Of a stretch of 64,000 nt of DNA, positions 15,162-31,330 are shown in pieces; position 1 is the first letter of the stretch; every line of letters starts with the position of its first letter. Origin of the DNA: an uncultured Acidobacteriaceae bacterium (GTDB lineage Bacteria > Acidobacteriota > Terriglobia > Bryobacterales > Bryobacteraceae); contig OY969780.1 in the NCBI GenBank assembly GCA_963703035.1, positions 969,644-1,033,643 of the forward strand, written 5' to 3'. The notes below the pieces were generated by a model that was not told the DNA's origin, did no database searches, and was given only the letters and a program-made list of their open reading frames with translations. The position numbers and the translations under genes were made by a program.

Positions 15162-16139
15162 TTATGCTGTCACGGGAAGCGGGCTTTCTTCTACGCCGGC
15201 CGCATCCATCGCATCACCTACTTTGTAGCGAATGAACCGGGCCACGCTGATATCTCCGCCGAGTTTCGCTCCAGCGTTCCGTATGAGGTCCCCGACGGAA
15301 ATCGTGTTCTCGCGGATGAATGGCTGTTCGAGTAAACATACCTCTTCGTAGAATTTGCTCATCCGGCCCTCGACAATTTTGTCGAGCATTTTTTCCGGCT
15401 TACCCTCGCTCCGTACCCGCTCCCGCTGAATGTCGCGTTCTTTTTCGAGAAGGTCCTTCGGAATATCACCTTTATTGACGCACTGCGGGGCAGACGCGGC
15501 GATCTGCATGGCGAGGTCGCGCACCAGAGTCTGGAACTCCGGTTTGTGAAGCACGCCTTCCGCGCTCACTTTCACTTCGACCAGCACCCCGATTTGTCCA
15601 CCGGTGTGAATGTAATTGGCGGCCCCGCCGGTGCCGTGCACCTCGAAGATCACAAACCGTGAAACCGCGATATTCTCGCCGAGCTTCGCGATCTTCGTCT
15701 TAACCAGCTCGCCAACCGTCGTGCCTTGATCTTTCGCGAACTTCTGCTCATATAAGGCCTGATGCGCTTTGAAGTTCGCCCGTTCGGCCTCTGTCACTTC
15801 CTCAAGCCGCACGACTTTCGGCTTGGTTTCGGCAATGTGCGCGGCGACGTCGGCGGTTAAGCTCTGGAAATCTTCCGTGCGCGCCACGAAGTCCGATTCG
15901 CAATTCACCTCTACAAGCACGCCCAATTTGGCATCCGGGCTGATGAATGATCCAATCAATCCCTGCTTCGTCGACCGGCTTTGCTTCTTGCTGGCGGACG
16001 CGATGCCTTGCTTGCGAAGGAAGACCTCCGCTTCTTCGACATTTCCGTTTGTCGCTTCCAGCGCCCTTTTGCAATCCATGTAACCTGCGCCCGTTCTGTC
16101 GCGCAGTTTCTTTACCAGCTGTGGTGTAATTTCCGCCAT
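15162..16139 (-). CDS. tsf: Translation elongation factor Ts
   Basis: [27 protein letters not shown] (UBA-like N-domain). GAGG lies 7 nt upstream of the ATG at 16139. The ORF-track start at 16187 is rejected. Confidence 0.93.
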
Positions 16140-16244
16140 CAATTCCTCTGATCTTTTATCCTCTAATACGCAGGCTCGTATGCGCACCCCGTCCGGCCAA
16201 GCGTCTTCGGCAGGTCGCGCGCCCGAGATATAGCGTGAAACGGA

Positions 16245-17150
16245 CTAGTGTTCGCTTACGGTCGTGCTCGCGACTTCTTCGGGTGCCTCAGTTCCAGGTC
16301 CCTTGCGGGGGGGTGTTTCCGGTTCCTCGCTGGTTGCCAGACTTTCTGACATCAACTGCTCCGCATACTTCGGATCCAGATACTGGGTATACTCTTCTTC
16401 AACCGCGTGCTCGCCCGCCGCTTCGTCTTCGCTAACGATCTTTTCAGCGGCGAAATCCTGCTCGGTTGCGAGTGACCGTCCTTCGACCACCGCGTCGGCA
16501 ATCTTGGTTGTAAACAGCCGGATAGCCCTCAGCGCGTCATCATTGCCGGGAATGACGTAATCCACCTCATCCGGATCGCAGTTTGTATCAACAACGGCTA
16601 CGACGGGAATGCCCAGCTTGCGAGCTTCCTTCACTGCGATCGCTTCTTTATTCGAATCGATCACAAACAGCAAGTCCGGCAAGCCGTTCATGTCTTTGAT
16701 CCCGGCCAAATTTTGCTGCAGATGCTTGCGCTCGCGCTCCAGCCGCCCCACTTCTTTCTTCGCGCGGCCCTCGTAAGCATTGTCGGTCGACATCGCGTCC
16801 AGCTCTTTCAGACGCTTGATCGACCGCTGCACCGTCATAATGTTCGTCAGCAATCCGCCGAGCCAGCGCTGATTCACGTAATACTGAGAGCACCGCGTGG
16901 CCTCTTCAGCAACCGCCTCCTGCGCCTGGCGCTTCGTGCCGACAAACAGCACAGTCTTGCCCTGCGCCGCCATCTCGCCGACATAGCGCATGGCGTCTTT
17001 GAAAAGCTTCAGCGTCTTCTGTAGGTCGACAATATAGATTCCGTTACGTTCGCCGAAGATGTACTCCTTCATCTTCGGATTCCAGCGCTTGGTCTGGTGC
17101 CCGAAGTGAACGCCTGCTTCGAGCAGCTCTTTCATTGAAATTGATGGCAA
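16245..17150 (-). CDS. rpsB: 30S ribosomal protein S2 (with about 60-aa acidic C-terminal tail)
   Basis: [22 protein letters not shown] and the canonical S2 core. Confidence 0.97.
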
Positions 17151-18198: not shown

Positions 18199-18399
18199 AG
18201 ACAGACTGATTCTCTTCGCTTCGATGGCTCGAACACACTAGTCTAGCGAATCGGAAATTTGGGTGTCAAACCGCGGGTTAGGAGGTAGTGGCTCAATTTG
18301 AGAATCAAGACACTCAAGCGGTATCTGCTTTTCTCAATCCACAGGGATGCGCAAGAGTGCGAAATGGGACTCTGTGAAGGGGAGCACGGAAATTTAGCG

Positions 18400-18507
18400 C
18401 TACTTCAGCGATCGATACACTCTGCTCCAGCCGCCGAACTGGGCCAATTTGAACTCTTTCGTGAACTGCCTGCGAGACAATCCCGCTGGCTCAATTCTCC
18501 ATTCCAT
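18400..18507 (-). pseudogene. Possible relic of an IS3-family OrfA (HTH_Tnp_1) N-terminus
   Basis: Minus-strand translation MEWRIEPAGLSRRQFTKEFKLAQFGGWSRVYRSLK*. The RRxFTxEFK segment resembles IS3 OrfA N-termini. The frame then degenerates and stops. It lies in a lower-GC spacer. Confidence 0.25.
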
Positions 18508-18653
18508 GAATTTTGAGTAACGGCTCAATCCATTACGGGTGTCATTTCGCGAATATCGGCTTGAGCCCGATGCATTTTCAGTCTGATGGCGGTCGTAATC
18601 TCCGGTAATTGCCAGCTGCTCCGCGGGCGGCGCGCGCAACGTTACTGTTTCCG

Positions 18654-19796
18654 TTATTGCTCGACCTGAAGCTTGACCCAGCCCGGCAAGGTTGAGGGTT
18701 GCCCCCCCGCAAACACAATCCGCCGGGTCTTCGGAAACGGTACTCCTTCGCGAATTGCCTTTCCAAAGCTCGGGACTGCGCGCAGAATCTTGCGATATGA
18801 GGTCTGCTCCGTATCCAGAAAGCCGGCCTTCGAAACAAATCCGCTTCCCCACCCGAGGCACAGCAGGCATGCCTCGTTTGATTGCTGCGCACGCTCGAGT
18901 TCCTGGCCCAACCCCCGCACGCTCTCAGATACGCCCGCCAGCCCCGCCATTTCCGCATACCGTGCGTGAATCGCAAGCTGCGCCGCTGCATGCTGGTTTG
19001 CTGCCTCTAGAATCACCTTCGGCTCCGGCGTCGTGCGCCAGCCTAAAGCACGCATCACTTCCGGATTTTCATAAAATGTGCGTTCTTCCCACTCGCCGCC
19101 AAATCCACTTCCCGCCACAGCCATCTCCGCGAAAACCGCGGTCGCGGTCGAGATCCTCTCGCCTGGAACGCTTCCCCGACCGGCAACCTTCCATGACAGC
19201 TGCGGCTTTTCGGGCGACCGCGTATCGAGCGTCGACACACGCGTAAGAAATACTTTGAACGTCGATGCCGGAACCGGCTCACTATCCCCAGCGGCCACCA
19301 CCTTCATCTGCGAGCCGCCTGCGCTCACTTCCGCTGCCTCGCCAATTCGACGGCCCACCCGGTCGCCTTCAACGGTAGCTGCAATGCGCTCGATCGTGCT
19401 CGCTGTCCAGCGCGAAGAAATCACACTCGTCCGCAGCGCTCCCTTCAGCGCCGAGCCCCGCAGATACGCACCCCGGTAATCTGCGGCAAACGTCGGGATG
19501 AACAGCGATTCAGGCGGCGCGGAGTTCCAGATCGAGGTCAACCCTGCATCTTCAAATGGAATCCGGCGTTGTGAGAAATTCTGCGCGAACCCGCCCCAGG
19601 TCGCAAAATCCAGTCGGGTCGCCCGCCTCAGTTGCGCGAGGTACCCCTCCAGCCGGGGCCCGCGCGCCAGCAGCTTGAAGATCCTCGGCTGGTCGAGAAC
19701 GTTTACCTGATCCTTCCAGACCATGTAATCGATCGGTGAAAGCTCGCGCCCATCCCCGGCCAGAAGCGGCGTGAGAACTGTGATTCTATACTTCAC
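18654..19796 (-). CDS. csm5: Type III CRISPR RAMP protein Csm5 (Cas7-like)
   Basis: Motifs MKYRITVLTPLLAGDG, GSALKGALRT, CLGWGSGF, FPKTRRIVF and LPGWVKL, the classical Csm5 pattern. Confidence 0.8.
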   Translation of the reverse strand: MKYRITVLTPLLAGDGRELSPIDYMVWKDQVNVLDQPRIFKLLARGPRLEGYLAQLRRATRLDFATWGGFAQNFSQRRIPFEDAGLTSIWNSAPPESLFIPTFAADYRGAYLRGSALKGALRTSVISSRWTASTIERIAATVEGDRVGRRIGEAAEVSAGGSQMKVVAAGDSEPVPASTFKVFLTRVSTLDTRSPEKPQLSWKVAGRGSVPGERISTATAVFAEMAVAGSGFGGEWEERTFYENPEVMRALGWRTTPEPKVILEAANQHAAAQLAIHARYAEMAGLAGVSESVRGLGQELERAQQSNEACLLCLGWGSGFVSKAGFLDTEQTSYRKILRAVPSFGKAIREGVPFPKTRRIVFAGGQPSTLPGWVKLQVEQ

Positions 19797-20970
19797 TCAC
19801 CGCCTCCCCGCTCTTAATTTCCAAATCTTTGGTTGCCGGCTCGTCGCACGGGCGTGGCTCGAAGCCCTCGCTTGGCGTTTCAACCGCGCGCGGGTCTTCC
19901 AGGCCGTCTCGGTCTGGCAGTCTCAGCGCGAGCGCCAGCCCCGACCTGTACACCGGATGCGCGAAACCGTCCGGCGCCACATCCACGGCCGCGCCGATCG
20001 GCTCTGCCTCGGCCGCCATCACCGATCCCTCTACGATCATTCGTACGCGCTTCTTCTCGGTTGCCGGTCCCCGGCCGTTCTCTACGTAACCGCCGCGAAC
20101 GTCGGCCTCGTACGCGCCGGCCGCCCAATCGATGCGATCGCCCAACGCAGGCGAGTACAACGACAACAGCCAGTAAAGAGACGCTTCACTCCCCGTATCT
20201 GCCCTCGAGCTGCCGTTCTTCGGGGCGTGGCCCAGCTTCGGCAGAAATACATTCGGCCATCGTCCCTCTTGAAACTCGGGCGCTTCTGCCTGGCCCCAAC
20301 CAATCGTCCGCCGTCCTCCGAAACCGCTGTCCCCAAGCAGGCGAAATGCACCCCTCACCCGATCTTTCCAGACTGAAGCCACCCCCTCATCCGCGAATCT
20401 GGCGACCCCCCACAATCCCGAGCCCGGCTCAAACTCGATGCATCCGTGCGCGTCGACGTGCGCAGCACTTTGCGTTACGCGATCTACCGCCGCGCTGCTC
20501 CGTACGACCGTTCGGAATGGGCTTGCGTTGGGGCGATCCCGCCGCAACAAACAGCCGCTCTCGGCATCCGCAACCCATTGATCTGCCAGAACCGTTTCTC
20601 CTCTTAACATGGATTCAATGAGGCTGACCGGGACAAAACGTGCTGCCTTCCAGCGCACTTTTGTCAAAAACACCGGGCTTGACGTCGTTACTGATCCAGC
20701 CGTCGGCGGCCATAAGGTCGAAGGCGGTGTTGCAAACAACGTCTCAGCCTGATACGGAAAGAGCGAGCTGAATATGACTCCCGGTGCCGGCTTTCGCGCC
20801 GTCTCGTCTAACCACTCCTCTAAAAATCCCAAGTCCCGCATTGCGAGCGTGACTGCCGAATACAGCCGGTCGCTGCGGAATAGCGAGTCCACGCGATTCC
20901 GTCCGCCTTCTCCCGGACCGCTGCGCCACGCGCCGCGCGGCCGCAGCCGTATCAACATCGCCGGCTGCAT
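19786..20970 (-). CDS. csm4: Type III CRISPR RAMP protein Csm4 (Cas5)
   Basis: N-terminal FRSDRLYSAVTLAM (compare SDTLFSAL of Csm4/Cmr3), G-rich loop LGDSGFGGRRTIGWGQ, and YWLLSLYSP. Confidence 0.8.
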   Translation of the reverse strand: MQPAMLIRLRPRGAWRSGPGEGGRNRVDSLFRSDRLYSAVTLAMRDLGFLEEWLDETARKPAPGVIFSSLFPYQAETLFATPPSTLWPPTAGSVTTSSPVFLTKVRWKAARFVPVSLIESMLRGETVLADQWVADAESGCLLRRDRPNASPFRTVVRSSAAVDRVTQSAAHVDAHGCIEFEPGSGLWGVARFADEGVASVWKDRVRGAFRLLGDSGFGGRRTIGWGQAEAPEFQEGRWPNVFLPKLGHAPKNGSSRADTGSEASLYWLLSLYSPALGDRIDWAAGAYEADVRGGYVENGRGPATEKKRVRMIVEGSVMAAEAEPIGAAVDVAPDGFAHPVYRSGLALALRLPDRDGLEDPRAVETPSEGFEPRPCDEPATKDLEIKSGEAVSEV

Positions 20971-21831: not shown

Positions 21832-22398
21832 TTACTCGTTATACGCGATAATCGCTTCAAATAAATCCCGAAACCGCTCATACCCCCGCGTATCGTTTTT
21901 CCGCGTGACTTGCAGCAGCAGCCGCTCAAGCGCATCCAGGCTCCGCAGCGAATGCCGCGCAATCGTGTACGCAAGGCGCGCCCGCACCATCACAAACTCG
22001 TGCTGGCGTTCATTCTCCGGAGCCCGCGTCGCCCGCCGAACAGCGTTGTATAACCGCCGCAGCTGGCTCTTTGTACCCGAATCCATATCGCGCATCCGGC
22101 TCACCACCACGTGCGCCTGATTGTCCAGATACAAGCTGTCGTTGATCAGTTTTTCCAAATCGATCTCCGGTGGACCTTCGCCGCGCCGCTCACCTGCACC
22201 ACGCGGACCGCCTCCGAAACGTTGCTCCCGGCCGCGATCTCCAGGTCTATCACCGCCGCGCTCGCCTCGGCCGTCTCCTCCTCCTCGTTCCTGTGACCCG
22301 CGCTCGTTTCCTCTCGGGCCGCCTCCGCGGTTCTCGCGCGGCGGCCGATTCTCTGCGCCCTTGCGCTCTTCCGTCTTCTTCTCGTCAATCTCAGGCAT
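21832..22398 (-). CDS. csm2: Type III CRISPR small subunit Csm2 (Cas11) with RGG-rich N-terminal tail
   Basis: C-terminal helical half SQLRRLYNAVRR...ARLAYTIARH...FRDLFEAIIAYNE fits Csm2. Residues 1-80 are Arg/Gly/Glu low complexity. Confidence 0.72.
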   Translation of the reverse strand: MPEIDEKKTEERKGAENRPPRENRGGGPRGNERGSQERGGGDGRGERGGDRPGDRGREQRFGGGPRGAGERRGEGPPEIDLEKLINDSLYLDNQAHVVVSRMRDMDSGTKSQLRRLYNAVRRATRAPENERQHEFVMVRARLAYTIARHSLRSLDALERLLLQVTRKNDTRGYERFRDLFEAIIAYNE

Positions 22399-22432: not shown

Positions 22433-23911
22433 CTAGCTTCCGATTGCGAGACGCGCCCACTCCAATCCCACCCGCGCCGAAGCCCGCAGCTTGAAACCCG
22501 CCGTCTTCTTCCCTACCAGGTTTGTTATCACCGTGTTTCGGATATGGTTCAGCTCTTTCCCGCGCGCTTCCGGAATCACGCGCGAGAGCCGCATGGCCGT
22601 CCGCCAGGGCTTATCGACGCGAATCGCTTTATTGCTCCGGGTGGCACGCGCCGAAAAAGCCTCTCGATAAATCGCCGCCAAGTCATTGATGTACTCGGGC
22701 GAATATCCAAACTCCCGCACCAATCGCACCAGCCCCGCCTTCAGTTCTTCCGCATCGCCCAACCGCTTCCATTCGAGAGTTCTCCCGAATAAGTGAAACG
22801 TGCCGGCTTCTGTCGCCTTGGCCGCCCGCAATTGTGTCGCGGCTTCTTCAAACACCATCGCCGCCGGGCTATCAGCCTCGGGCGCAATCGCCAGCGCCAT
22901 GCTGATCGTCTTTCCTTCCAAGCTCGGAAATGCTTCGGCATGCTGCTCAATGAATTTCTTGAACAGCCGCTCAATTTCCTGCGCCAGCAGGGTCAGCGCA
23001 TCCCATGTCCCGATCAGCGCGAACTCCTCGCCGCCGCGATATAAGATCGTCACGTTGCGGAAGAAATCCGGCATCGTGCACAGCAGCGCCAGTTCGCCCG
23101 CGAAGAACTCCTTAGATGACGCCGAGAGCTGTATGTGCTCTTCAATCGACCCGGCGCCTTTCAACAACGCGTCGAACTGATCGACGTCACCCCGCAGCAC
23201 TCCCCATCGCGCGGCGCCTTCCGCTCGTTGCGCCAAATCCGGCAACGATGCCGGGCGAGCGCCACTGTCATCCATAGCGAACCGGCGCGGAAAGAGAATT
23301 GCCTCTTCATCCAACCCGGGCTGATCGATCAACCGCCAGACATGCTCTCCTTCATCCCAGCTAAGCTGTGCCGGAGCGCCGCTCGACCAGCCAACCTTCG
23401 ACGCAGAAATCAACTTCTCAGCAAAATGCCCAAAATAGCTCTCCGCATCGGGATCCCGCGCTTCCACAAACGTCGCGAAAAAGCCATCTGAGCCGTTCAT
23501 CGCCAGAGGCGTCGCAGCCTTCGCGAATAACGCATCATCAAGGCGTTTCCGAGCTACTGGCCACGCGCCCAAATTTTCGGTGCTCGCCCAAATCAACCGC
23601 AAAGCGCTCCCGGAAAGCTTCATCACAGCGCCACTCGCGCGTTCGAGAAACGCATTCGCACGCGGAATATCTTCTTCAGCGAGAACCAGAAGGAATTGTT
23701 CAGCGCTGCTCGATCCCAACAGCATTCGCGACAGCTTCAGTTCTGCCAACAGCGCTCGCGGCAGAACCTCGCAGAACAGTGTCAGCCACGCGCAACGGCC
23801 CATCAGATCAGCCGTCTGTTCAACCGCGCCGCCCAGCTGCCCGGAGGATCGTGCCGTCAGGAACTCTTCGGCGCCGAGCAGTTGAGCTTGCAGAAAAACT
23901 TGCAGCGACAT
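22433..23911 (-). CDS. cas10: Minimal Cas10/Csm1-like protein (492 aa; Palm/cyclase domain with GGEEF; no HD domain, no zinc finger)
   Basis: Motifs RWGVLRGDVDQFD, ILYRGGEEFALIGTWD, ISMALAIAP and AKATEAGTFHLFG follow the Cas10 Palm2 pattern. It is the first gene of the csm operon. No H-D dyad region or CxxC pairs are present. Confidence 0.72.
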   Translation of the reverse strand: MSLQVFLQAQLLGAEEFLTARSSGQLGGAVEQTADLMGRCAWLTLFCEVLPRALLAELKLSRMLLGSSSAEQFLLVLAEEDIPRANAFLERASGAVMKLSGSALRLIWASTENLGAWPVARKRLDDALFAKAATPLAMNGSDGFFATFVEARDPDAESYFGHFAEKLISASKVGWSSGAPAQLSWDEGEHVWRLIDQPGLDEEAILFPRRFAMDDSGARPASLPDLAQRAEGAARWGVLRGDVDQFDALLKGAGSIEEHIQLSASSKEFFAGELALLCTMPDFFRNVTILYRGGEEFALIGTWDALTLLAQEIERLFKKFIEQHAEAFPSLEGKTISMALAIAPEADSPAAMVFEEAATQLRAAKATEAGTFHLFGRTLEWKRLGDAEELKAGLVRLVREFGYSPEYINDLAAIYREAFSARATRSNKAIRVDKPWRTAMRLSRVIPEARGKELNHIRNTVITNLVGKKTAGFKLRASARVGLEWARLAIGS

Positions 23912-24029
23912 GAGACCAGGTCGTAGCGGCCCGCAACCTCGCGGGCTTGGCGTGTTCAGACGTGAATGCTTCCAAGCCTAACACACGGGCTTACCCCCGT
24001 CAGCCTTATCGTAAGAGACACTAGACTGC

Positions 24030-24929
24030 GTGCGCGGCCGGACCACTTTTATCACGCGGCATCCCGTCGTCAGCTATTTCGTGCTGACGTTCGCGGTCTC
24101 TTGGACAGCCGCGCTTTGTGTGGCGGCTCCCTATCTCATCCGCCAGGCCCCACTTCCGAAGCTGACCGGCATCCTAATGTTCCCGGCTATGCTTCTCGGC
24201 CCTAGTTTCGCGGGTATCATCTTGACCGGGATTGTAGACGGAAAACGCGGCTTGCGCGATCTCCTCTCCCGCTTATCGCTCGCGCGCATCGCAGGACGCT
24301 GGTACGCAGCTCTCCTGATCCCCCCGCTTCTGGTCCTGACCGTTCTCTTCTGTTTGACAGCCCTCGTATCTCCCGCTTACCGTCCCAATTTCTTTCTTAT
24401 GGGTGTCTTCTTCGGCGTCCCTGCGGGATTCGTTGAAGAAATCGGCTGGACAGGCTATCTGTTCCCCAAAATGGCTTCGCGGCACAATGCATTGGCTTCG
24501 AGCATCGGATTAGGATTGCTATGGAGCGCCTGGCATTTACCCGTCATCAATTTCCTGGGCGCCGCCACACCCCACGGTTCTTACTGGTTTCCGTTTTTCC
24601 TCGTATTTGCGGTAGCTATGACGGCCATGCGCGTGCTGATCTGCTGGATCTACACCAACACGAAGAGCGTCCTTATAGCGCAGCTCATGCATGTCAGCTC
24701 GACAGGCTCCCTGGTCGTGTTTAGCGCTCCGCGTGTGATACCAGCGCAAGAAGTCATATGGTACGGGCTTTACAGCGTTGCGCTATGGCTCACGGTCGGC
24801 ATCGTTATCAGACGTTACAGCAAGCGTCTAACGCGCCAGACGGCCCAGTGCGCCGCCTCGGGAGCAACTGAGATCAATGCCTCCACAGCGCCGCAGCAGC
24901 CTCTTGCACCCCCACCCGAAATCCGATAA
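24030..24929 (+). CDS. CPBP family intramembrane glutamic endopeptidase (CAAX protease/Abi)
   Basis: Polytopic membrane protein with motif 1 VEEIGWTGY and motif 2 LLWSAWHL. GTG start. Confidence 0.8.
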   Translation: MRGRTTFITRHPVVSYFVLTFAVSWTAALCVAAPYLIRQAPLPKLTGILMFPAMLLGPSFAGIILTGIVDGKRGLRDLLSRLSLARIAGRWYAALLIPPLLVLTVLFCLTALVSPAYRPNFFLMGVFFGVPAGFVEEIGWTGYLFPKMASRHNALASSIGLGLLWSAWHLPVINFLGAATPHGSYWFPFFLVFAVAMTAMRVLICWIYTNTKSVLIAQLMHVSSTGSLVVFSAPRVIPAQEVIWYGLYSVALWLTVGIVIRRYSKRLTRQTAQCAASGATEINASTAPQQPLAPPPEIR

Positions 24930-24964
24930 TGTAACGCAAGTACCTATCAAAATAGGAGCTACTC

Positions 24965-26119
24965 ATGCCCGATCCGGAAATAACCCCAGCAACCGCCGTC
25001 GCGCCCGTCTCTCCCGCGGTTCAGTTGGATGCCACTACGCCTGCCGAAAGCATGCTGTCACTGCTGCAATCGGCTTACGCAGCGTTTCAGCTGCAAAATG
25101 TCCCAAGTTCGAAACAGGTTGCCACTCTCGCCAAGGCGCTCTTTGACTCTGCCAAGGTCACCGCTTCGCCCGTCGAAGTTCTCGTCCTCGAACTGCTCAA
25201 AAATCAGGTATGTCTGTTCGAGCCCTTCACGAGAGCCGTCGTCCGGCAAGGAGAAGGTCGCTTCTCCGACGCCCTCAAAGAGATTGACACGGCGCTCCGC
25301 ATCGCCCAAGGATCCATCGCAAGCGTAGATCAGTACGCCCGCACGCCTGATCACGACGCGGATCTTATTGAAACCCTCCAGCCGACTTCGCAGTTGATGT
25401 TGATCCTCCTCAAAGGCTACAAAGCTACAATTCGCGCGGATGTTGTTGGCTTTCAAGGAAGGATTTCCGAGTATCTCGACCTCCTCAGGGAAGCCATAGC
25501 CGAGTTCAACAAGGGAAACGATCTTCCGCCCACCGACGATCCTTCTGTCCTGATGGTTGCTGGAATTGTCTCCAGCCTTGCTGATCGCCTCGAGACTCGC
25601 GTCAGGTTTTTCGAACTGACACCCGGACCGCCTCCGGCCGTGCCAACCGGAAAGAAAATCTTTCTCATTCACGGAAAGAACGAGGCGAAGCGGCGGGAAC
25701 TCGGCGACCTCCTGAAAGATAAACTAAATCAGCAAGTCGTCATTCTCGAAGACCAGCTCGACGCTGGAATGACGATTATCGAGAAATTCACGAAGTACGC
25801 ATCCGAGTGTTGCTATGCCTTTGCCTTGCTGACCCCCGATGATTTCGTCAAGAGCGGTGAGACTAGCATCTTTCAGGCGCGGCCCAACGTCCTGTTTGAG
25901 ATCGGCTGGTTTTACGGCAAATTCGGTCGCGATCGGGTGATGCTGGTTCTCCAGGAAGGAACCGATATCCCTTCTGATCTCAGCGGGATCGTATACGTCA
26001 AATTTAATGCTAGCGTCGGTGAGCAATTCCTGCGTTTCCAGGAAGAGCTCACACGTATCGGCCTCATTGGCCAGAAGCCCGCACGCAAGCCGCGCAGCCG
26101 CACCGCCGTCACGCAGTAA
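24965..26119 (+). CDS. TIR-like domain protein (CAP12/Pycsar-effector type TIR at the C-terminus, unassigned helical N-terminal domain)
   Basis: Residues about 230-350: KKIFLIHGKNE...AFALLTPDD...ARPNVLFEIGWFYGKFGRDRVMLVL...IPSDLSGIVY. This matches the pattern of the predicted nucleotide-binding TIR-like family. Confidence 0.75.
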   Translation: MPDPEITPATAVAPVSPAVQLDATTPAESMLSLLQSAYAAFQLQNVPSSKQVATLAKALFDSAKVTASPVEVLVLELLKNQVCLFEPFTRAVVRQGEGRFSDALKEIDTALRIAQGSIASVDQYARTPDHDADLIETLQPTSQLMLILLKGYKATIRADVVGFQGRISEYLDLLREAIAEFNKGNDLPPTDDPSVLMVAGIVSSLADRLETRVRFFELTPGPPPAVPTGKKIFLIHGKNEAKRRELGDLLKDKLNQQVVILEDQLDAGMTIIEKFTKYASECCYAFALLTPDDFVKSGETSIFQARPNVLFEIGWFYGKFGRDRVMLVLQEGTDIPSDLSGIVYVKFNASVGEQFLRFQEELTRIGLIGQKPARKPRSRTAVTQ

Positions 26120-26140: not shown

Positions 26141-26899
26141 ATGATCATCTTCATCACAGGAGCCACAGCCGGTTTCGGAAGGGCCATGGCGCGTCGATTT
26201 GCACCCGACGGCGCGAAAATCATCGGAACCGGCCGGCGCAAGAACCGCCTCGAAGAACTCAAGCAGGAGCTCGGTACGAATTTTTGGCCGCTGCCCTTCG
26301 ATGTCGGTGATCGTAAGCAGGTCGAACGCGCCATATCGAGCTTGCCTCCCGAATTCGCCGCGGTCGATGTCCTGGTCAACAATGCGGGAGGCGCTCTCGG
26401 CCTCGATCCGGCTTATAAGGCGAATCTCGACGATTGGGACGCCATGGTCGATGCCAACGTGAAAGGTGTCCTCTATTGCACTCGCGCCCTGCTGCCCGGC
26501 ATGGTCGAACGCAACCGCGGGCACGTCATCAACATGGGCTCCTCAGCCGCCGAATGGCCCTATCCGGGCGGCAATGTCTACGGCGCAACCAAGGCGTTCG
26601 TCCATCAATTCAGCATGAACCTCCGCGCCGATCTGTTTGGAACCGAGGTTCGCGTCACCGACGTCCAGCCAGGTCTAGTCGCCGGCACTGAATTCTCTGA
26701 AGTGCGTTTCAAAGGCGATAAGAAGCGGGCGCAGTCGGTCTACGAAGGAACCCAACCATTAACTGCGGAGGACGTCGCCGAAACCGTGTATTGGGTTGCG
26801 ACCCGTCCTCCGCATTTCAACGTAAACACAATCCAGATCATGCCCGTCGGCCAAGCCTTCGGCCCCCTGCCCGTAAAGAAACAGAACCGGGAGCCGTAG
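26141..26899 (+). CDS. SDR family NADP-dependent oxidoreductase (YdfG-like)
   Basis: ITGATAGFG, NNAG and a YxxxK-type catalytic region (YGATKAF). Confidence 0.88.
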   Translation: MIIFITGATAGFGRAMARRFAPDGAKIIGTGRRKNRLEELKQELGTNFWPLPFDVGDRKQVERAISSLPPEFAAVDVLVNNAGGALGLDPAYKANLDDWDAMVDANVKGVLYCTRALLPGMVERNRGHVINMGSSAAEWPYPGGNVYGATKAFVHQFSMNLRADLFGTEVRVTDVQPGLVAGTEFSEVRFKGDKKRAQSVYEGTQPLTAEDVAETVYWVATRPPHFNVNTIQIMPVGQAFGPLPVKKQNREP

Positions 26900-26913: not shown

Positions 26914-27945
26914 CTAAAAACTGCGCTGCGGCCGATACCCCGGCCGCGCCCGAATTTTATATTTCCGCATTGCATCCGGCGTCAGCTGAATGCTGATCCT
27001 GCGGAATCCCTCATTCGGGTTCGGTTGTGGATAGTAAGTAACTGTATAGCTATTCCCGAGATCTTCACGAATCAGCTCAAACGCTTCCACCTGCGTTTGC
27101 CACGTCTTCGCAAAATAGCTCTTCCCGCCCGTGGTCGCCGAAATACGCTTAAAAATTGAGCTCGATATCGGATCGTTCGTCACCGCGCTGGTCGAGATCA
27201 CATAAATCGGAATGCCTTCATCCTCAGCCACGGCGCGCACATCATCGGGCGCCACCATGCTCGCATTATCGGGTCCGTTAGAAAACACGATCACCACTTT
27301 TCGCCCCGGCACTCTTGCAGCGTCACGCAGCGTCAGCAGAAGACAATTGTAAAGAGCCGAATCGTCTCCTGCCACCGCCTTTCGCAACCCGGCAATCGCC
27401 GTTGAGCGGTCACGGCTCAGCGGAACAGCGCGGTTCAAGTTCCGGCTATACGTGTAAACAGCGATTGAATCGGCGCGATCCAAGCCGCGAATGAAATCGG
27501 CGATCGCATCCGATGCGTACACGAATCCCCGGTACATGTAGTTGCTCGTATCGAACAGAACAAACACATTCGTGCCCGTCATCGCATCCGACCGCAGGTC
27601 CACAACCCCCGGCCCCGGATTGCCGTTACCCACGTTTGCCCTTCCCGCAGGAAGCGGCTTGGTCTGCCCGTTGTCAAGCACCTGCATCGGCGCCCGCGTG
27701 CCTTCTGCGAACGTGGCCATTTTCTGCGGAATCTCGTCTTCGTATATTTTGAAGTCCGCCGGCTTCAGCCCGTTCACGTAATGACCCTTCTGGTCGGTAA
27801 CCGTGAAGCTCAGGACCACCATGTCCACCTTTACGTGAAAGGTAGTCTGATCCTGGTCTTGCGCCTGTACCCGGCCATGCATCCACACAGCCGCCCCGCA
27901 TCCCACCAACCCTATCGCCCCCAAAACACGCCCGAATCTCTTCAC
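26914..27945 (-). CDS. VWA domain protein (acidobacterial VWFA-related family), secreted
   Basis: Signal peptide, then FHVKVDMVVLSFTVTDQKGHYVNGLKPADFKIYEDE. vWA core VFVLFDTSNYM. Confidence 0.8.
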   Translation of the reverse strand: MKRFGRVLGAIGLVGCGAAVWMHGRVQAQDQDQTTFHVKVDMVVLSFTVTDQKGHYVNGLKPADFKIYEDEIPQKMATFAEGTRAPMQVLDNGQTKPLPAGRANVGNGNPGPGVVDLRSDAMTGTNVFVLFDTSNYMYRGFVYASDAIADFIRGLDRADSIAVYTYSRNLNRAVPLSRDRSTAIAGLRKAVAGDDSALYNCLLLTLRDAARVPGRKVVIVFSNGPDNASMVAPDDVRAVAEDEGIPIYVISTSAVTNDPISSSIFKRISATTGGKSYFAKTWQTQVEAFELIREDLGNSYTVTYYPQPNPNEGFRRISIQLTPDAMRKYKIRARPGYRPQRSF

Positions 27946-27955
27946 CTTGCCCTTC

Positions 27956-30900
27956 CTAATTCTGTGATGTATTCAGTCCCGCGCGCTGGTTGCTGCGCTG
28001 CTTGACGTTCTCTCCTACCGTATGCAGAGAGCGCAAAACTGCCGGCCAGTCTTCCAAATGCGTTGCAAAAATATTCTCGATCATCGAACGGTTCCACTCC
28101 GGTACGTAGGAGTCCAGCTCCTCGATCGGCGCACCCACTTCATCCGCCAGCGTGGCGTAGTAGAGGTTGTCCGATTCCCAGCTCTCCGCAAGAATCCGGC
28201 TTGAGTAGCCCATCAGCGCTGGAAACGTGCGCAGATACAAAAGGCCCGGCCGGTATGAGTGCGTGAGCGTCGGTTTCGGCGTGCCGAATGAGCGCGCCAT
28301 CGCATCGCGCGTCAGGTCCGGATTGTTCTGCTCCGCCAAAGCCGCAATCGCGCTCGATGCTGCGTCGGGGGAAACGTCTCGAAGAGCCGCATCCTGCGCC
28401 AGTGCGTAGAGTTCTGACGTCGGCACTTGCGAGACTGCCTTCCGGAAATCTCCCGCATTCAGTTCATCTCGCAGGCGCTCCACTCGCGCAGGCGTCGCGA
28501 ACCGCCCATACGCTTCAAAAACCCGCCCCTGCAGTGACGGATCCAAAGCGGCTGCCGCCAGCAGGTTCCGCCCCCGCTGGACGTGCAGCGACACCCAGCG
28601 CACTTGCTCCGCTTTCACATTCCTCCATCTGGTCACCGTCACATCCACAATCATCTGCGGCACCAGATCTGCCCAAATCAGCGCTTGCTCGCGCTTCGGC
28701 GTCAAAAAGTTTTGCTCGGCTTCGGCGATCGCGTAGGGAATCGCCACCAGCGATCCCATCAGCCGTCCGCCCGAGCTTGCCGGCCATCCACTTCCAGTAA
28801 TTTCCGTCGGGCGCCACGAAGCTGGTGTCTCCGGAGGACCAATGAAATCGTGGCCTCGCACGAACAGCGGATTCGTCAACAGTAACTGCGCCCCCGCCGG
28901 AGCATAGTAACAGTACACAAGCCCTACCAAAGAGTCCCGCAGGAATGGCGCAAGCAGCGTCTGCGCATCCTTCTTTCCAGAGTTCTTCGCCAAGTCCTCG
29001 AAGCTAACCTTTTTCTCCTCGCCAATGTGTCGTTCGCTCCAGTAACCCACTGACATCGCGCTCTTCTCCGCCGATGAAAGCGAGCCGCGCAGCGATTCGG
29101 TATCCTCCAGACGCCCCAGTTGCTCGTCGATTTTCTTCATCGTCTTCGGGTCCAGCGAGCCCTTCCCCATCAGATCCGCCACCGTGAATAGGCTATCCAG
29201 AGGAATCAAACGCTGCGCGTCAAAAATGCGCAAGAAACTTTCCGATGGCGAGTAAGCTCCGGGCCCTACCGGCCCGTGCACCTTGCCGACTAGCAGTTCG
29301 ACCATTTGCTCGTGCAGGGATCCGCTCGGCCGAACCTGTACCGCCGATAACAGCGCCTCTACTCCCGACCGCCCCGCCGCGAACACCTCCGCCTCCTGCT
29401 TCACGTGATCAAAAGGTTCGATCACCTTCGCAAAGGTTGCGTCGACTGAATTCGGCCCAATTGCATTCTGGCGCGCGAGGATATCCCACAGCTCGATTAG
29501 CGCCTGCACGGTCCCGATCGCGTCGGCTTTCGCGAGCCCATCATGCATGGCCGAGAGGTCCGTGCACGTATCCAGATAGTGCTCGATCGACGCCTCGCTT
29601 AACAGGGGCTCGTCCGCGAACACGACATACTGTGCCCCATAGCGTCTATAACCCGCTATCAGCCGCGCTGCCAGTTGCGCCGACATCGGCTTCGGCCGGT
29701 TGCGGTCCACATCGTTCAGCGTCAGAAAGATTTTTAGCGGTTCATTTTCAACCGTCTTCCGGCTGAGCCCGAACAGCGCTTCCAAAAGATCATCGCTCGT
29801 TTTCCACGAACTCGCGGATCGCGTCAGCCGGCCGTCATACTTCCCATGCGGGTGCTTGATGAACAGATTCCGCCAAACATCCAGGTTGCCCGGAACGTGA
29901 GGCTGTCCGTTCGCATCAATTCGGAGTGACGTGGTCAGCAATAACAACTCGGTGCTCGAGCGGAAAACAGGTCGCGCCGGTCCCGGGCTGGTGATCTTCC
30001 CGCGTAGCGCTTCATAAAACCGCTTCATGCGCTCCGGTTGCGCCAAATAGGCCACAGTCGGCCCGTTCATTCGCGATAGCGCATCGAAGTAACTCGCCAG
30101 CCATCCGTCGTCGACAGCGATCAGCTTGTCGAAAAACGCCCCCGGGTTGCTCGGCGGCACTCCCACCAGCGAAGCCCAAACTTTCGGCGAGCCAGGCACA
30201 GCGGCAGCCCCGTTCCGGATCTGAAACATGCTGCCGAAGAAATCTAAGACGTGTGCGTAAATCTTGAGCTTGGCCGCCGATGCTTCCCGGCGCAAAGCCT
30301 CCGCCGTCTCGCGATCTAACCGCGATAGTCCCAGATACAAGCGGCACAGCGATGGATCGGAAAGGAACGCGTCGACAAAATCGGCCTGCCCCGTCTTCCC
30401 CAGCGCCGACAACCAGTACTCCGCGTTATATAAAACAGGCACCTGCGTGGACGCAAACGCCAACTCGAAACGCCGGTTCGCGCGAAGGTCCTGCTCCAGC
30501 TGCGTTAACGGAAATCCCGAATCGATCGTGAGAAAAGCCCGTGTCGCATTCACCGTCTCGAGAACGATGTCCGCCCCGCACGATCCGCGCATGCGATACC
30601 CCAGCGTCTTCAGCAACCGCCCCGTTTCTTCGCTGTCGCAAGTCGGGATCACGATCTTCCGGTCCTTGTTCGTCATCGCCTGTAATTCCCGAGCCTGTCC
30701 TATATACCGGATCAGCAATCGCAGGTATTCGGTCTGTACCAAAGCTTCATTCCCCGAGGCTTCGTAACCATTCGTCACAACATTCCGCGCCAGAGACGGA
30801 AGCAGATCTTCAGGCGCGAGTTCGGGTGACAGCGCCGCCATGCGCGCAAATGAAGAAAGCGGGCCCGGAATCGTCACTGTGCTGAAGAGGTTCACGGGCG

Positions 30901-31330
30901 TCTTTCTCGCCGGCATGTTCAAATCGTCGCCGCCCGCCCCCCGGTACTGCTTCAGATCGCTCGAGAGTTCTGTGTCCCGTCCTTGCATGAAATCCAACAG
31001 GACCGCTTGCCGCAATGCCAATTTCCGCTTCGCCGGATCATTCTCTTCGGCAGCCCACTTCAAGTACGCGTCCCTGCTCCCCGGATCGCCATGCCGCTCG
31101 AGAAATTCCGCTAGAGCAGCCGCGCCTGCGCTGTTTCCCGGCTTCGCCGCTGCTTCTTCCAGAACCGACCGCGCGCCCGGCAAGTCGCCGCTCGATTCGT
31201 GCTGCATCACCTGTTGCTGCAAGTCCCCTGGTGAGGCGCCGCGCATCGGCCCCATCGCAATGCAGCCGAAAGTCGCGGCCAGCGCGACGTAGAAAAAAGT
31301 TCTTCCGGCAGAATCAGCTTTCATACCCAC
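27956..31330 (-). CDS. Large secreted hypothetical protein, 1124 aa
   Basis: Uninterrupted ORF with an N-terminal hydrophobic signal-like segment. It ends 10 nt before the VWA gene. No family recognised. Confidence 0.65.
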   Translation of the reverse strand: MGMKADSAGRTFFYVALAATFGCIAMGPMRGASPGDLQQQVMQHESSGDLPGARSVLEEAAAKPGNSAGAAALAEFLERHGDPGSRDAYLKWAAEENDPAKRKLALRQAVLLDFMQGRDTELSSDLKQYRGAGGDDLNMPARKTPVNLFSTVTIPGPLSSFARMAALSPELAPEDLLPSLARNVVTNGYEASGNEALVQTEYLRLLIRYIGQARELQAMTNKDRKIVIPTCDSEETGRLLKTLGYRMRGSCGADIVLETVNATRAFLTIDSGFPLTQLEQDLRANRRFELAFASTQVPVLYNAEYWLSALGKTGQADFVDAFLSDPSLCRLYLGLSRLDRETAEALRREASAAKLKIYAHVLDFFGSMFQIRNGAAAVPGSPKVWASLVGVPPSNPGAFFDKLIAVDDGWLASYFDALSRMNGPTVAYLAQPERMKRFYEALRGKITSPGPARPVFRSSTELLLLTTSLRIDANGQPHVPGNLDVWRNLFIKHPHGKYDGRLTRSASSWKTSDDLLEALFGLSRKTVENEPLKIFLTLNDVDRNRPKPMSAQLAARLIAGYRRYGAQYVVFADEPLLSEASIEHYLDTCTDLSAMHDGLAKADAIGTVQALIELWDILARQNAIGPNSVDATFAKVIEPFDHVKQEAEVFAAGRSGVEALLSAVQVRPSGSLHEQMVELLVGKVHGPVGPGAYSPSESFLRIFDAQRLIPLDSLFTVADLMGKGSLDPKTMKKIDEQLGRLEDTESLRGSLSSAEKSAMSVGYWSERHIGEEKKVSFEDLAKNSGKKDAQTLLAPFLRDSLVGLVYCYYAPAGAQLLLTNPLFVRGHDFIGPPETPASWRPTEITGSGWPASSGGRLMGSLVAIPYAIAEAEQNFLTPKREQALIWADLVPQMIVDVTVTRWRNVKAEQVRWVSLHVQRGRNLLAAAALDPSLQGRVFEAYGRFATPARVERLRDELNAGDFRKAVSQVPTSELYALAQDAALRDVSPDAASSAIAALAEQNNPDLTRDAMARSFGTPKPTLTHSYRPGLLYLRTFPALMGYSSRILAESWESDNLYYATLADEVGAPIEELDSYVPEWNRSMIENIFATHLEDWPAVLRSLHTVGENVKQRSNQRAGLNTSQN

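Follow-up and report, generated by a model that had tools for sequence, protein, structure and literature searches.

A compact, HD-less Cas10 at the head of an array-less, vertically inherited type III-A-like csm operon in Bryobacterales-like Acidobacteria

The solved Cas10/Csm1 subunits of type III-A complexes (Enterococcus italicus, 9g9c; Lactococcus lactis, 9ash/6xn5; S. thermophilus, 6ifn; T. onnurineus, 4uw2/6mur) have the same Palm1-Palm2-D4 fold as the protein described here. Further points of likeness are the acidic residues of the DxD and GGDD type in Palm2, the position of the gene at the head of a csm2-csm5 operon and the catalytic Asp of Csm3. Compared with a canonical Csm1 of about 750-800 aa, however, the present Cas10 is about 260-290 aa shorter, both the HD domain and the zinc finger are gone, and the linker is reduced. 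In contrast to canonical III-A systems, the Palm1 motif GDxSGIQ is not conserved, and no array, cas6 or csm6 is found adjacent to the operon.

An HD domain is recognisable in only 39% of 1113 type III loci, and 61% are without it (PMC11229360). Hence, a sequence-only reading of the same DNA, which took a typical Cas10 to start with an HD domain, overstated the rarity of its absence. HD-less, cyclase-positive Cas10s are already the majority, and the value of a follow-up lies here in the array-less, vertically conserved operon. More surprising than a small Cas10 is that an array-less operon of five genes was inherited across an order of soil Acidobacteria with nearly all loci intact.

The operon lies on the minus strand of the window, i.e. 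the whole 64-kb stretch of DNA that was analysed, in the order cas10-csm2-csm3-csm4-csm5 with cas10 first:

22433-23911, minus strand: cas10/csm1, compact form (492 aa plus stop, ATG start)
21832-22398, minus strand: csm2/cas11, with an N-terminal RG/RGG-rich extension of ~80 aa
20974-21807, minus strand: csm3/cas7, with the catalytic loop GGADNPVIKD
19786-20970, minus strand: csm4/cas5 (Pfam/NCBIfam match)
18654-19796, minus strand: csm5 (NCBIfam match)

Csm2, Csm3, Csm4 and Csm5 score above the NCBIfam III-A cutoffs (TIGR01870, TIGR02582, TIGR01903 and TIGR01899). The gene order is common to 83 loci, every locus long enough to show the operon has it, and only few loci lack an intact copy of one of the five genes. 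The Csm3 loop GGADNPV[VI]KD is present in 84/84 loci, including the most distant ones, and aligns with Csm3 of solved complexes. The cas10 ORF thus encodes a complete large subunit, and together the five genes make up a Csm effector module of type III-A-like composition. Downstream of the operon the window continues with rplM-rpsI-rpsB-tsf-pyrH.

Coordinates and codons of the 492-aa minus-strand ORF, including the positions given for GDVD and GGEEF in the sequence-only reading, were confirmed. SMALAIAP, AKATEAG and LLGSSSAEQFLLVLAEED were all located in the translation as well. The ORF is divided as follows:

23513-23911, minus strand: Palm1 domain, aa 1-133 (AlphaFold2 secondary structure; hhalign to Cas10 residues 275-400; weak Pfam Csm1_B match)
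23207-23512, minus strand: reduced linker/D2 region, aa 134-235 (residues 135-156 disordered, then a small beta domain)
22772-23206, minus strand: Palm2 cyclase/polymerase domain, aa 236-380 (Pfam PF22335, E = 2e-15; alignments to PDB Cas10)
23180-23191, minus strand: GDVD metal-binding loop, aa 241-244
23021-23035, minus strand: GGEEF, aa 293-297 (codons GGC GGC GAG GAG TTC)
22436-22771, minus strand: C-terminal helical D4 domain, aa 381-492 (AlphaFold2, Foldseek, hhalign)

Pfam Cas10-Cmr2_palm2 (PF22335) matches aa 236-367 with 57.4 bits against a cutoff of 27, and Csm1_B gives a weak match below its cutoff on aa 35-111 (E = 7e-4). The NCBIfam Csm1 model (TIGR02578) is matched with E = 3e-35, covering only positions 491-732 of 753, and its equivalog trusted cutoff is missed (121.9 bits vs 170). 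The shortest PADLOC Cas10 profile matched has 519 positions and is longer than the protein itself. An AlphaFold2 model computed with 45 homologs (pLDDT 81, pTM 0.85) predicts a beta-alpha-beta-beta-alpha-beta unit for residues 4-133, followed by the disordered stretch 135-156, the small beta domain, a second palm (236-380) and a helical C-terminal domain (381-490). The fold of the first unit and its alignment to Palm1 of Cas10 agree with the earlier assignment of the N-terminal ~130 aa as Palm1-like. All of the top 50 listed Foldseek matches in the PDB (50/50) are Cas10/Csm1 and cover the whole query including D4. The best match is 9g9c_A (E = 1.2e-17), and the best query-normalised TM-scores against solved Csm1 are 0.72-0.75. 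A plain GGDEF fold without Cas10 domains was not seen.

In an hhalign comparison with a profile of five full-length Cas10 proteins (755-814 aa), query residues 11-488 align to residues 275-780 with a probability of 99.9. According to this alignment, the HD domain (residues 1 to ~265) and the zinc finger are lost, and Palm1, Palm2 and D4 are retained. GDVD is aligned with ADID and GGEEF with GGDD, both of 7uzw_F and of the full-length profile. The metal-binding acidic residues thus align with those of Cas10 Palm2, and the description of the Palm2 pattern as intact holds. Judged by its sequence and its predicted fold, the ORF 22433-23911 is a genuine Cas10/Csm1 and not a plain GGDEF cyclase. Relatives carry the public labels 'Csm1' (JGI) and, for some at NCBI, 'Cas10/Cmr2 second palm domain-containing protein'.

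The absence of the HD nuclease and of the zinc finger, both proposed from the sequence at the outset, is borne out. The alignment begins only at residue 275 of full-length Cas10, the dipeptide HD does not occur in the protein, and an HD dyad is likewise missing from the csm2-csm5 products. A divergent ORF (24030, plus strand) starts 118 nt upstream of cas10; a gap this short cannot hold a separate HD gene, as had been argued before. The full 492-aa translation contains three Cys residues (40, 47 and 278) and no CxxC pair. By alignment and AlphaFold2, the canonical zinc-finger positions C423/C426/C437/C440 fall into the gap of the shortened linker, which includes the disordered residues 134-156. 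In Palm1, AQLLGAEE takes the place of the canonical GDxSGIQ, and the GR of the KGRS motif is retained as G38 and R39. A Cas10 of ~494 aa that is unrelated to the acidobacterial family (P0248) has CxxC motifs; because of its similar length, small size is not unique to the present Cas10.

At E<=1e-3, 1312 homologs were found. The best 120 of these 1312 have 430-518 aa, mostly 487-512, at 64-83% identity. Near-full-length matches have 457-518 aa. When representatives clustered at 50% identity were searched exhaustively, relatives of the short form (457-494 aa) were met as far down as ~36% identity; the next ones beyond that are full-length Cas10 proteins of 755-814 aa that match Palm2 and D4 only. 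Since the lengths are conserved across homologs, the short form is stable and under selection, and a truncation does not explain it. Among GTDB representative genomes, at least 141 stretches from species-level genomes encode a relative; 80 of the 141 were retrieved, and 80/80 belong to Bryobacterales, Bryobacteraceae or Terriglobia MAGs. No description of a compact Cas10 family of Acidobacteria was found in the literature.

The position of GGEEF varies within the family. Among 79 distinct loci it reads GGDDF in 60, GGEDF in 6, GGEEF in 2 and GGDEF in 1, and is degenerate in 10 (GGDG, GGDN, GGNS, EGDG, EGEG). GG[DE][DE] is therefore intact in 69/79 loci (87%), and GD[VILA]D is found in 79/79. 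Only the present genome and its closest relative carry GGEEF, so the weight that the first inspection gave to this variant was too great for a family with the consensus GGDDF. Since both carboxylates are preserved by the conservative replacement to GGEE, cyclase activity of the present Cas10 is plausible from its sequence. The earlier suggestion of a retained cyclase can thus be upheld for this protein, but not for the family as a whole. Because the motif is degenerate in 10/79 loci and in 8/22 deep representatives, the family must owe its conservation to something other than signalling.

Two further elements were found in the leader of cas10:

23975-23985, minus strand: extended -10-like element TGnTAnnCT (invariant columns in 82 loci; kept in distant members)
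23919-23946, minus strand: 5' leader hairpin GCCCGC/GCGGGC, then conserved CGCUACGACC (compensatory changes)

We infer that TGnTAnnCT is a putative cas10 promoter; a simple sigma-70 scan did not call the element. The leader hairpin is absent in those family members that are most distant. The idea that the hairpin and CGCUACGACC represent a fossil CRISPR repeat or a self-derived guide is not supported, as a second copy occurs in no locus. Metagenomes were also scanned, with exact matches required, for arrays whose repeats end in CGCUACGACC; the matches listed were only chance pairs and coding tandem repeats. Rfam gave no match at E<=1 on 17-27 kb.

Some features of the locus had escaped the sequence-only reading, namely the absence of an array, cas6 or effector and the deep vertical conservation of the operon. 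TRF and repeat finders detected no CRISPR array in the 64-kb window, and 83 related loci showed none in the +-10 kb around the operon (TRF/repeat finders on three loci; k-mer scan of 84 sequences, 1.66 Mb). The lone k-mer match, in locus L017, is a coding tandem repeat at the C-terminus of csm4. Genes for cas6, cas1/cas2 and csm6/CARF/SAVED are missing from the ORFs of the window, and cas6, cas1/2 and CARF/SAVED are missing from the conserved flank clusters within +-10 kb of the 83 related loci. Searches of the other 41 ORFs of the window gave no match to a defence family in PADLOC or to a Cas or CARF family in Pfam. Since array, cas6 and CARF/SAVED genes are absent nearby, both a guide and a signal receptor are hypothetical.

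All flank ORFs of the retrieved loci were clustered. Recurrent neighbours are a PEP-CTERM-type AAA ATPase (71 loci), a short-chain dehydrogenase (55) and a VWA protein together with a protein of 1124 aa (49). The remaining flank genes are housekeeping genes, e.g. for tRNA synthetases, Lgt/LspA and fatty-acid oxidation. The more Cas10 differs between loci, the more its neighbours tend to differ as well (Spearman rho 0.37-0.63), and even at 34-40% Cas10 identity the block with the 1124-aa and VWA proteins upstream and the AAA ATPase downstream is kept. Synteny and co-divergence indicate that the module has long been passed on vertically in the chromosomes of Bryobacterales-like Acidobacteria and is not a mobile defence island. 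A mobile or viral origin was rejected, as no viral contig in IMG/VR encodes a relative. Defence systems are usually patchy and mobile. Long vertical residence is unusual for a defence module.

The AAA ATPase that follows csm5 in 71 loci was considered as a sixth subunit and is treated as a syntenic neighbour. Its gene has its own conserved sigma-54-type promoter (TGGC-N8-TTGC spacing) and is absent from the present 64-kb window. Its adjacency survives at 34% Cas10 identity, and a functional link to the operon may exist.

The best explanation, which we hold with moderate confidence, is a Csm module that is guided in trans, cleaves RNA by Csm3 and in the present genome makes a nucleotide messenger, without ssDNase activity. 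The five Csm proteins would assemble on a guide RNA encoded away from the operon, most simply a crRNA from an array elsewhere in the genome that is processed by Cas6 in trans. Complementary RNA would be cleaved by the complex through the strictly conserved Csm3 aspartate. Upon target binding, the Palm1/Palm2 pocket with GDVD and GGEE would, in this genome, probably produce a nucleotide second messenger, to be read by a receptor encoded elsewhere. Cas10 itself would have no ssDNase activity. Cas6 supplied in trans is considered the rule among type III loci, many of which have no array (PMC12669027); moreover, 133 of 1113 type III loci have an HD-less, cyclase-positive Cas10 without a known effector (PMC11229360). 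Supply in trans therefore has precedent. Several observations count against this explanation. Neither an array nor cas6 nor an effector lies nearby, in the window or within +-10 kb of the 83 loci. The cyclase motif is degenerate in 10/79 loci and 8/22 deep representatives, and the nucleotide-binding motif GDxSGIQ of Palm1 is not conserved. In addition, the operon is syntenic and co-diverging, in contrast to the usual patchy and mobile occurrence of defence systems.

In a different reading, possible but clearly less probable, the Csm complex is exapted and has ceased to act in adaptive immunity. It would then use a fixed host RNA or no CRISPR guide at all and cleave or regulate host transcripts, and the cyclase would be optional and decaying. 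In favour of this are the deep vertical conservation of the operon, which sits among housekeeping genes in at least 141 species-level genomes and keeps its synteny even at 34-40% Cas10 identity, and the repeated loss of the cyclase motif next to an invariant Csm3 active site. The lack of a nearby array, cas6, adaptation genes and effector and the unusual RGG-rich tail of Csm2 point in the same direction, and tight nucleotide-level constraint on the cas10 leader and the first codons suggests regulated expression. However, the search for a guide RNA gave no candidate: the conserved leader hairpin is single-copy and absent in those members that are most distant. Array-less type III loci using crRNA in trans are common, and 87% of the loci retain GG[DE][DE], which also argues against exaptation. 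Rather doubtful is the more specific proposal of a Csm complex domesticated in Bryobacterales-like Acidobacteria, with no array, Cas6 or cOA effector, a host RNA as guide or host transcripts as targets, and a scaffold Cas10 that is losing its cyclase in some lineages. If true, a type III effector would here have been exapted in nature for a role outside defence.

The genes on the other side of the putative cas10 promoter were considered as a candidate effector:

24030-24929, plus strand, divergent from cas10: CAAX-protease ORF
24965-26119, divergent upstream of cas10: TIR ORF (PF10137, E = 2.5e-33; PADLOC PDC-S35, E = 6e-42)

TIR-SAVED effectors are known in type III systems, and the TIR ORF lies 1.05 kb upstream of cas10 behind the divergent CAAX gene. 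The GGEE-bearing Cas10 might thus signal to this adjacent pair, the effector acting via NAD+ depletion. We regard this as improbable, because the CAAX/TIR pair occurs in only 2/84 loci and the 230 aa before the TIR domain show no CARF/SAVED signature even at E<=5. Moreover, in the closest relative CAAX and TIR are one fused gene of 699 aa, which is split by a frameshift here, and PDC-S35 is a stand-alone defence candidate. With no sensor domain detected, the TIR neighbour was rejected as a cOA effector, and both genes are regarded as an unrelated insertion.

That the operon is a decaying type III-A remnant with cas10 as a truncated pseudogene is very improbable. A short protein without HD domain and zinc finger in a locus without array or accessory genes might give this impression, but length and sequence are conserved among >1300 homologs at 60-83% identity, with the short form found down to ~36%, nearly all loci have the five genes undamaged, the active site of Csm3 does not vary and AlphaFold2 predicts a confident fold; the conservation data effectively refute a truncation. 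Practically negligible is the chance of an ordinary GGDEF/GGEEF diguanylate cyclase that adjoins RAMP genes by accident, as might be read from the GGEEF motif and a weak NCBIfam SiaD match (E = 0.022): a Pfam GGDEF match is missing, the family consensus is GGDDF, the gene order is that of a Csm module, and such an identity is refuted by the Foldseek matches, with all top 50 listed structural neighbours being Cas10/Csm1 including D4, and by the hhalign alignment to full-length Cas10.

If active, the present Cas10 would be near the smallest Palm1-Palm2-D4 core that is able to sit in a Csm complex and to signal. It would show which parts are needed for cyclase activation and help in engineering smaller type III tools. 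The operon, found in at least 141 species-level genomes, also provides a tractable test of whether an orphan type III system borrows crRNA and effectors in trans or has been repurposed by the host.

Among known systems, HD-less, cyclase-positive Cas10s such as the III-B Cmr2 of Vibrio metoecus (PMC8682760) likewise have no DNase domain and presumably act by RNA cleavage and/or nucleotide signalling. HD-less Cas10 loci normally carry an ancillary effector (NucC, Csm6/Csx1 etc.) and often an array, however, whereas none is found near the present operon. [quoted passage not shown] III-G is also without an array, and a supply of crRNA in trans was proposed for it (PMC12669027). [quoted passage not shown] The present operon reverses the III-G/III-H pattern: HD is lost, the Palm2 motif is mostly intact and the Cas7 Asp is invariant. 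mCpol of the Panoptes system (PMC12657230) is similar in being a miniaturised palm enzyme of the Cas10 family without HD. In contrast to mCpol, which is a stand-alone cyclase with a 2TM-beta effector and without Cas5, Cas7 or Cas11, the acidobacterial Cas10 combines two palms with D4 and is embedded in a Csm operon.

Over the ~80 nt 5' of the cas10 ATG, conservation reaches 90–100% between species whose Cas10 proteins are only 60–65% identical, as seen in a nucleotide alignment of 82 loci. In this alignment an extended -10-like box, TGnTAnnCT, is invariant in the upstream region, and a 6-bp hairpin in the leader, followed by CGCYACGACC, shows compensatory changes at 6/6 pairs. Synonymous sites of cas10 codons 2–9 are also conserved there (0.79 vs 0.52 elsewhere, p=1e-4). 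The features discussed here, in window positions unless a related locus is named, are:

22159–22398, minus: RG/RGG-rich extension of Csm2, aa 1–80
23882–23995, minus: conserved cas10 upstream/start region (alignment of 82 loci)
24030–26119, plus: CAAX/Rce1-like protease ORF and CAP12/Pycsar-type TIR ORF
26914–31330, minus, and 26141–26899, plus: recurrent upstream neighbours of the csm operon
L001 (closest relative) 15226–16298, with counterparts at this position in 70 further loci: AAA ATPase gene

High nucleotide-level conservation across loci was found for the first ~25 codons of csm2 as well. The N-terminus of its product, Csm2/Cas11, is an RG/RGG-rich extension of ~80 aa, including …NRGGGPRGNERGSQERGGGDGRGERGG…, which is probably disordered. 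Length around the csm4 C-terminus differs from locus to locus. In one of them, L017 (14083–14262), the CRISPR array scan flagged ~48-nt tandem repeats in this region, which are not a CRISPR array.

Upstream of the operon, a 1124-aa protein, a VWA protein and a short-chain dehydrogenase recur in 49–55 of ~80 loci, and the first two are retained in the most distant family members. The VWA protein is of the Acidobacteria type (TIGR03436); the 1124-aa protein has no family match, and the leader 5' of its gene is conserved (TGGTAGAGT…TTGGGGG). The CAAX protease/TIR pair is present in only 2/84 loci. It forms a single fused 699-aa gene in L001 (7789–9888) and is split in the window by a frameshift near ...VTQVP/ELLMPDPE, the TIR ORF upstream of cas10 corresponding to PADLOC PDC-S35.

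Window ORFs outside 14399–34571 gave Pfam matches, at ~34500–64000, to NiFe hydrogenase subunits, HypA/HypD/HypF maturation proteins, a sortase, ECF-type sigma factors and a large outer-membrane beta-barrel protein; none of these ORFs had a defence-family match.

In 71 loci the gene next after csm5 encodes a 300-aa XrtA/PEP-CTERM-type AAA ATPase (TIGR03015-like, E 4e-89). The gene has a conserved promoter of its own, of the sigma-54 type (TTGGnnCnnnAATTGC), and AGTATGATGG is conserved where its start is predicted. It is absent from the window (gap 18199–18653), where rplM-rpsI occupy its place. A good match to a sigma-70-type promoter, TTGACA-18-TAGACT (18240–18269, minus), precedes rplM within this 455-nt gap after csm5, which suggests that transcription of the ribosomal genes is independent of that of the csm genes. 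Among the related loci, adjacency of csm operon and AAA ATPase gene is still kept at Cas10 identity as low as 34%.
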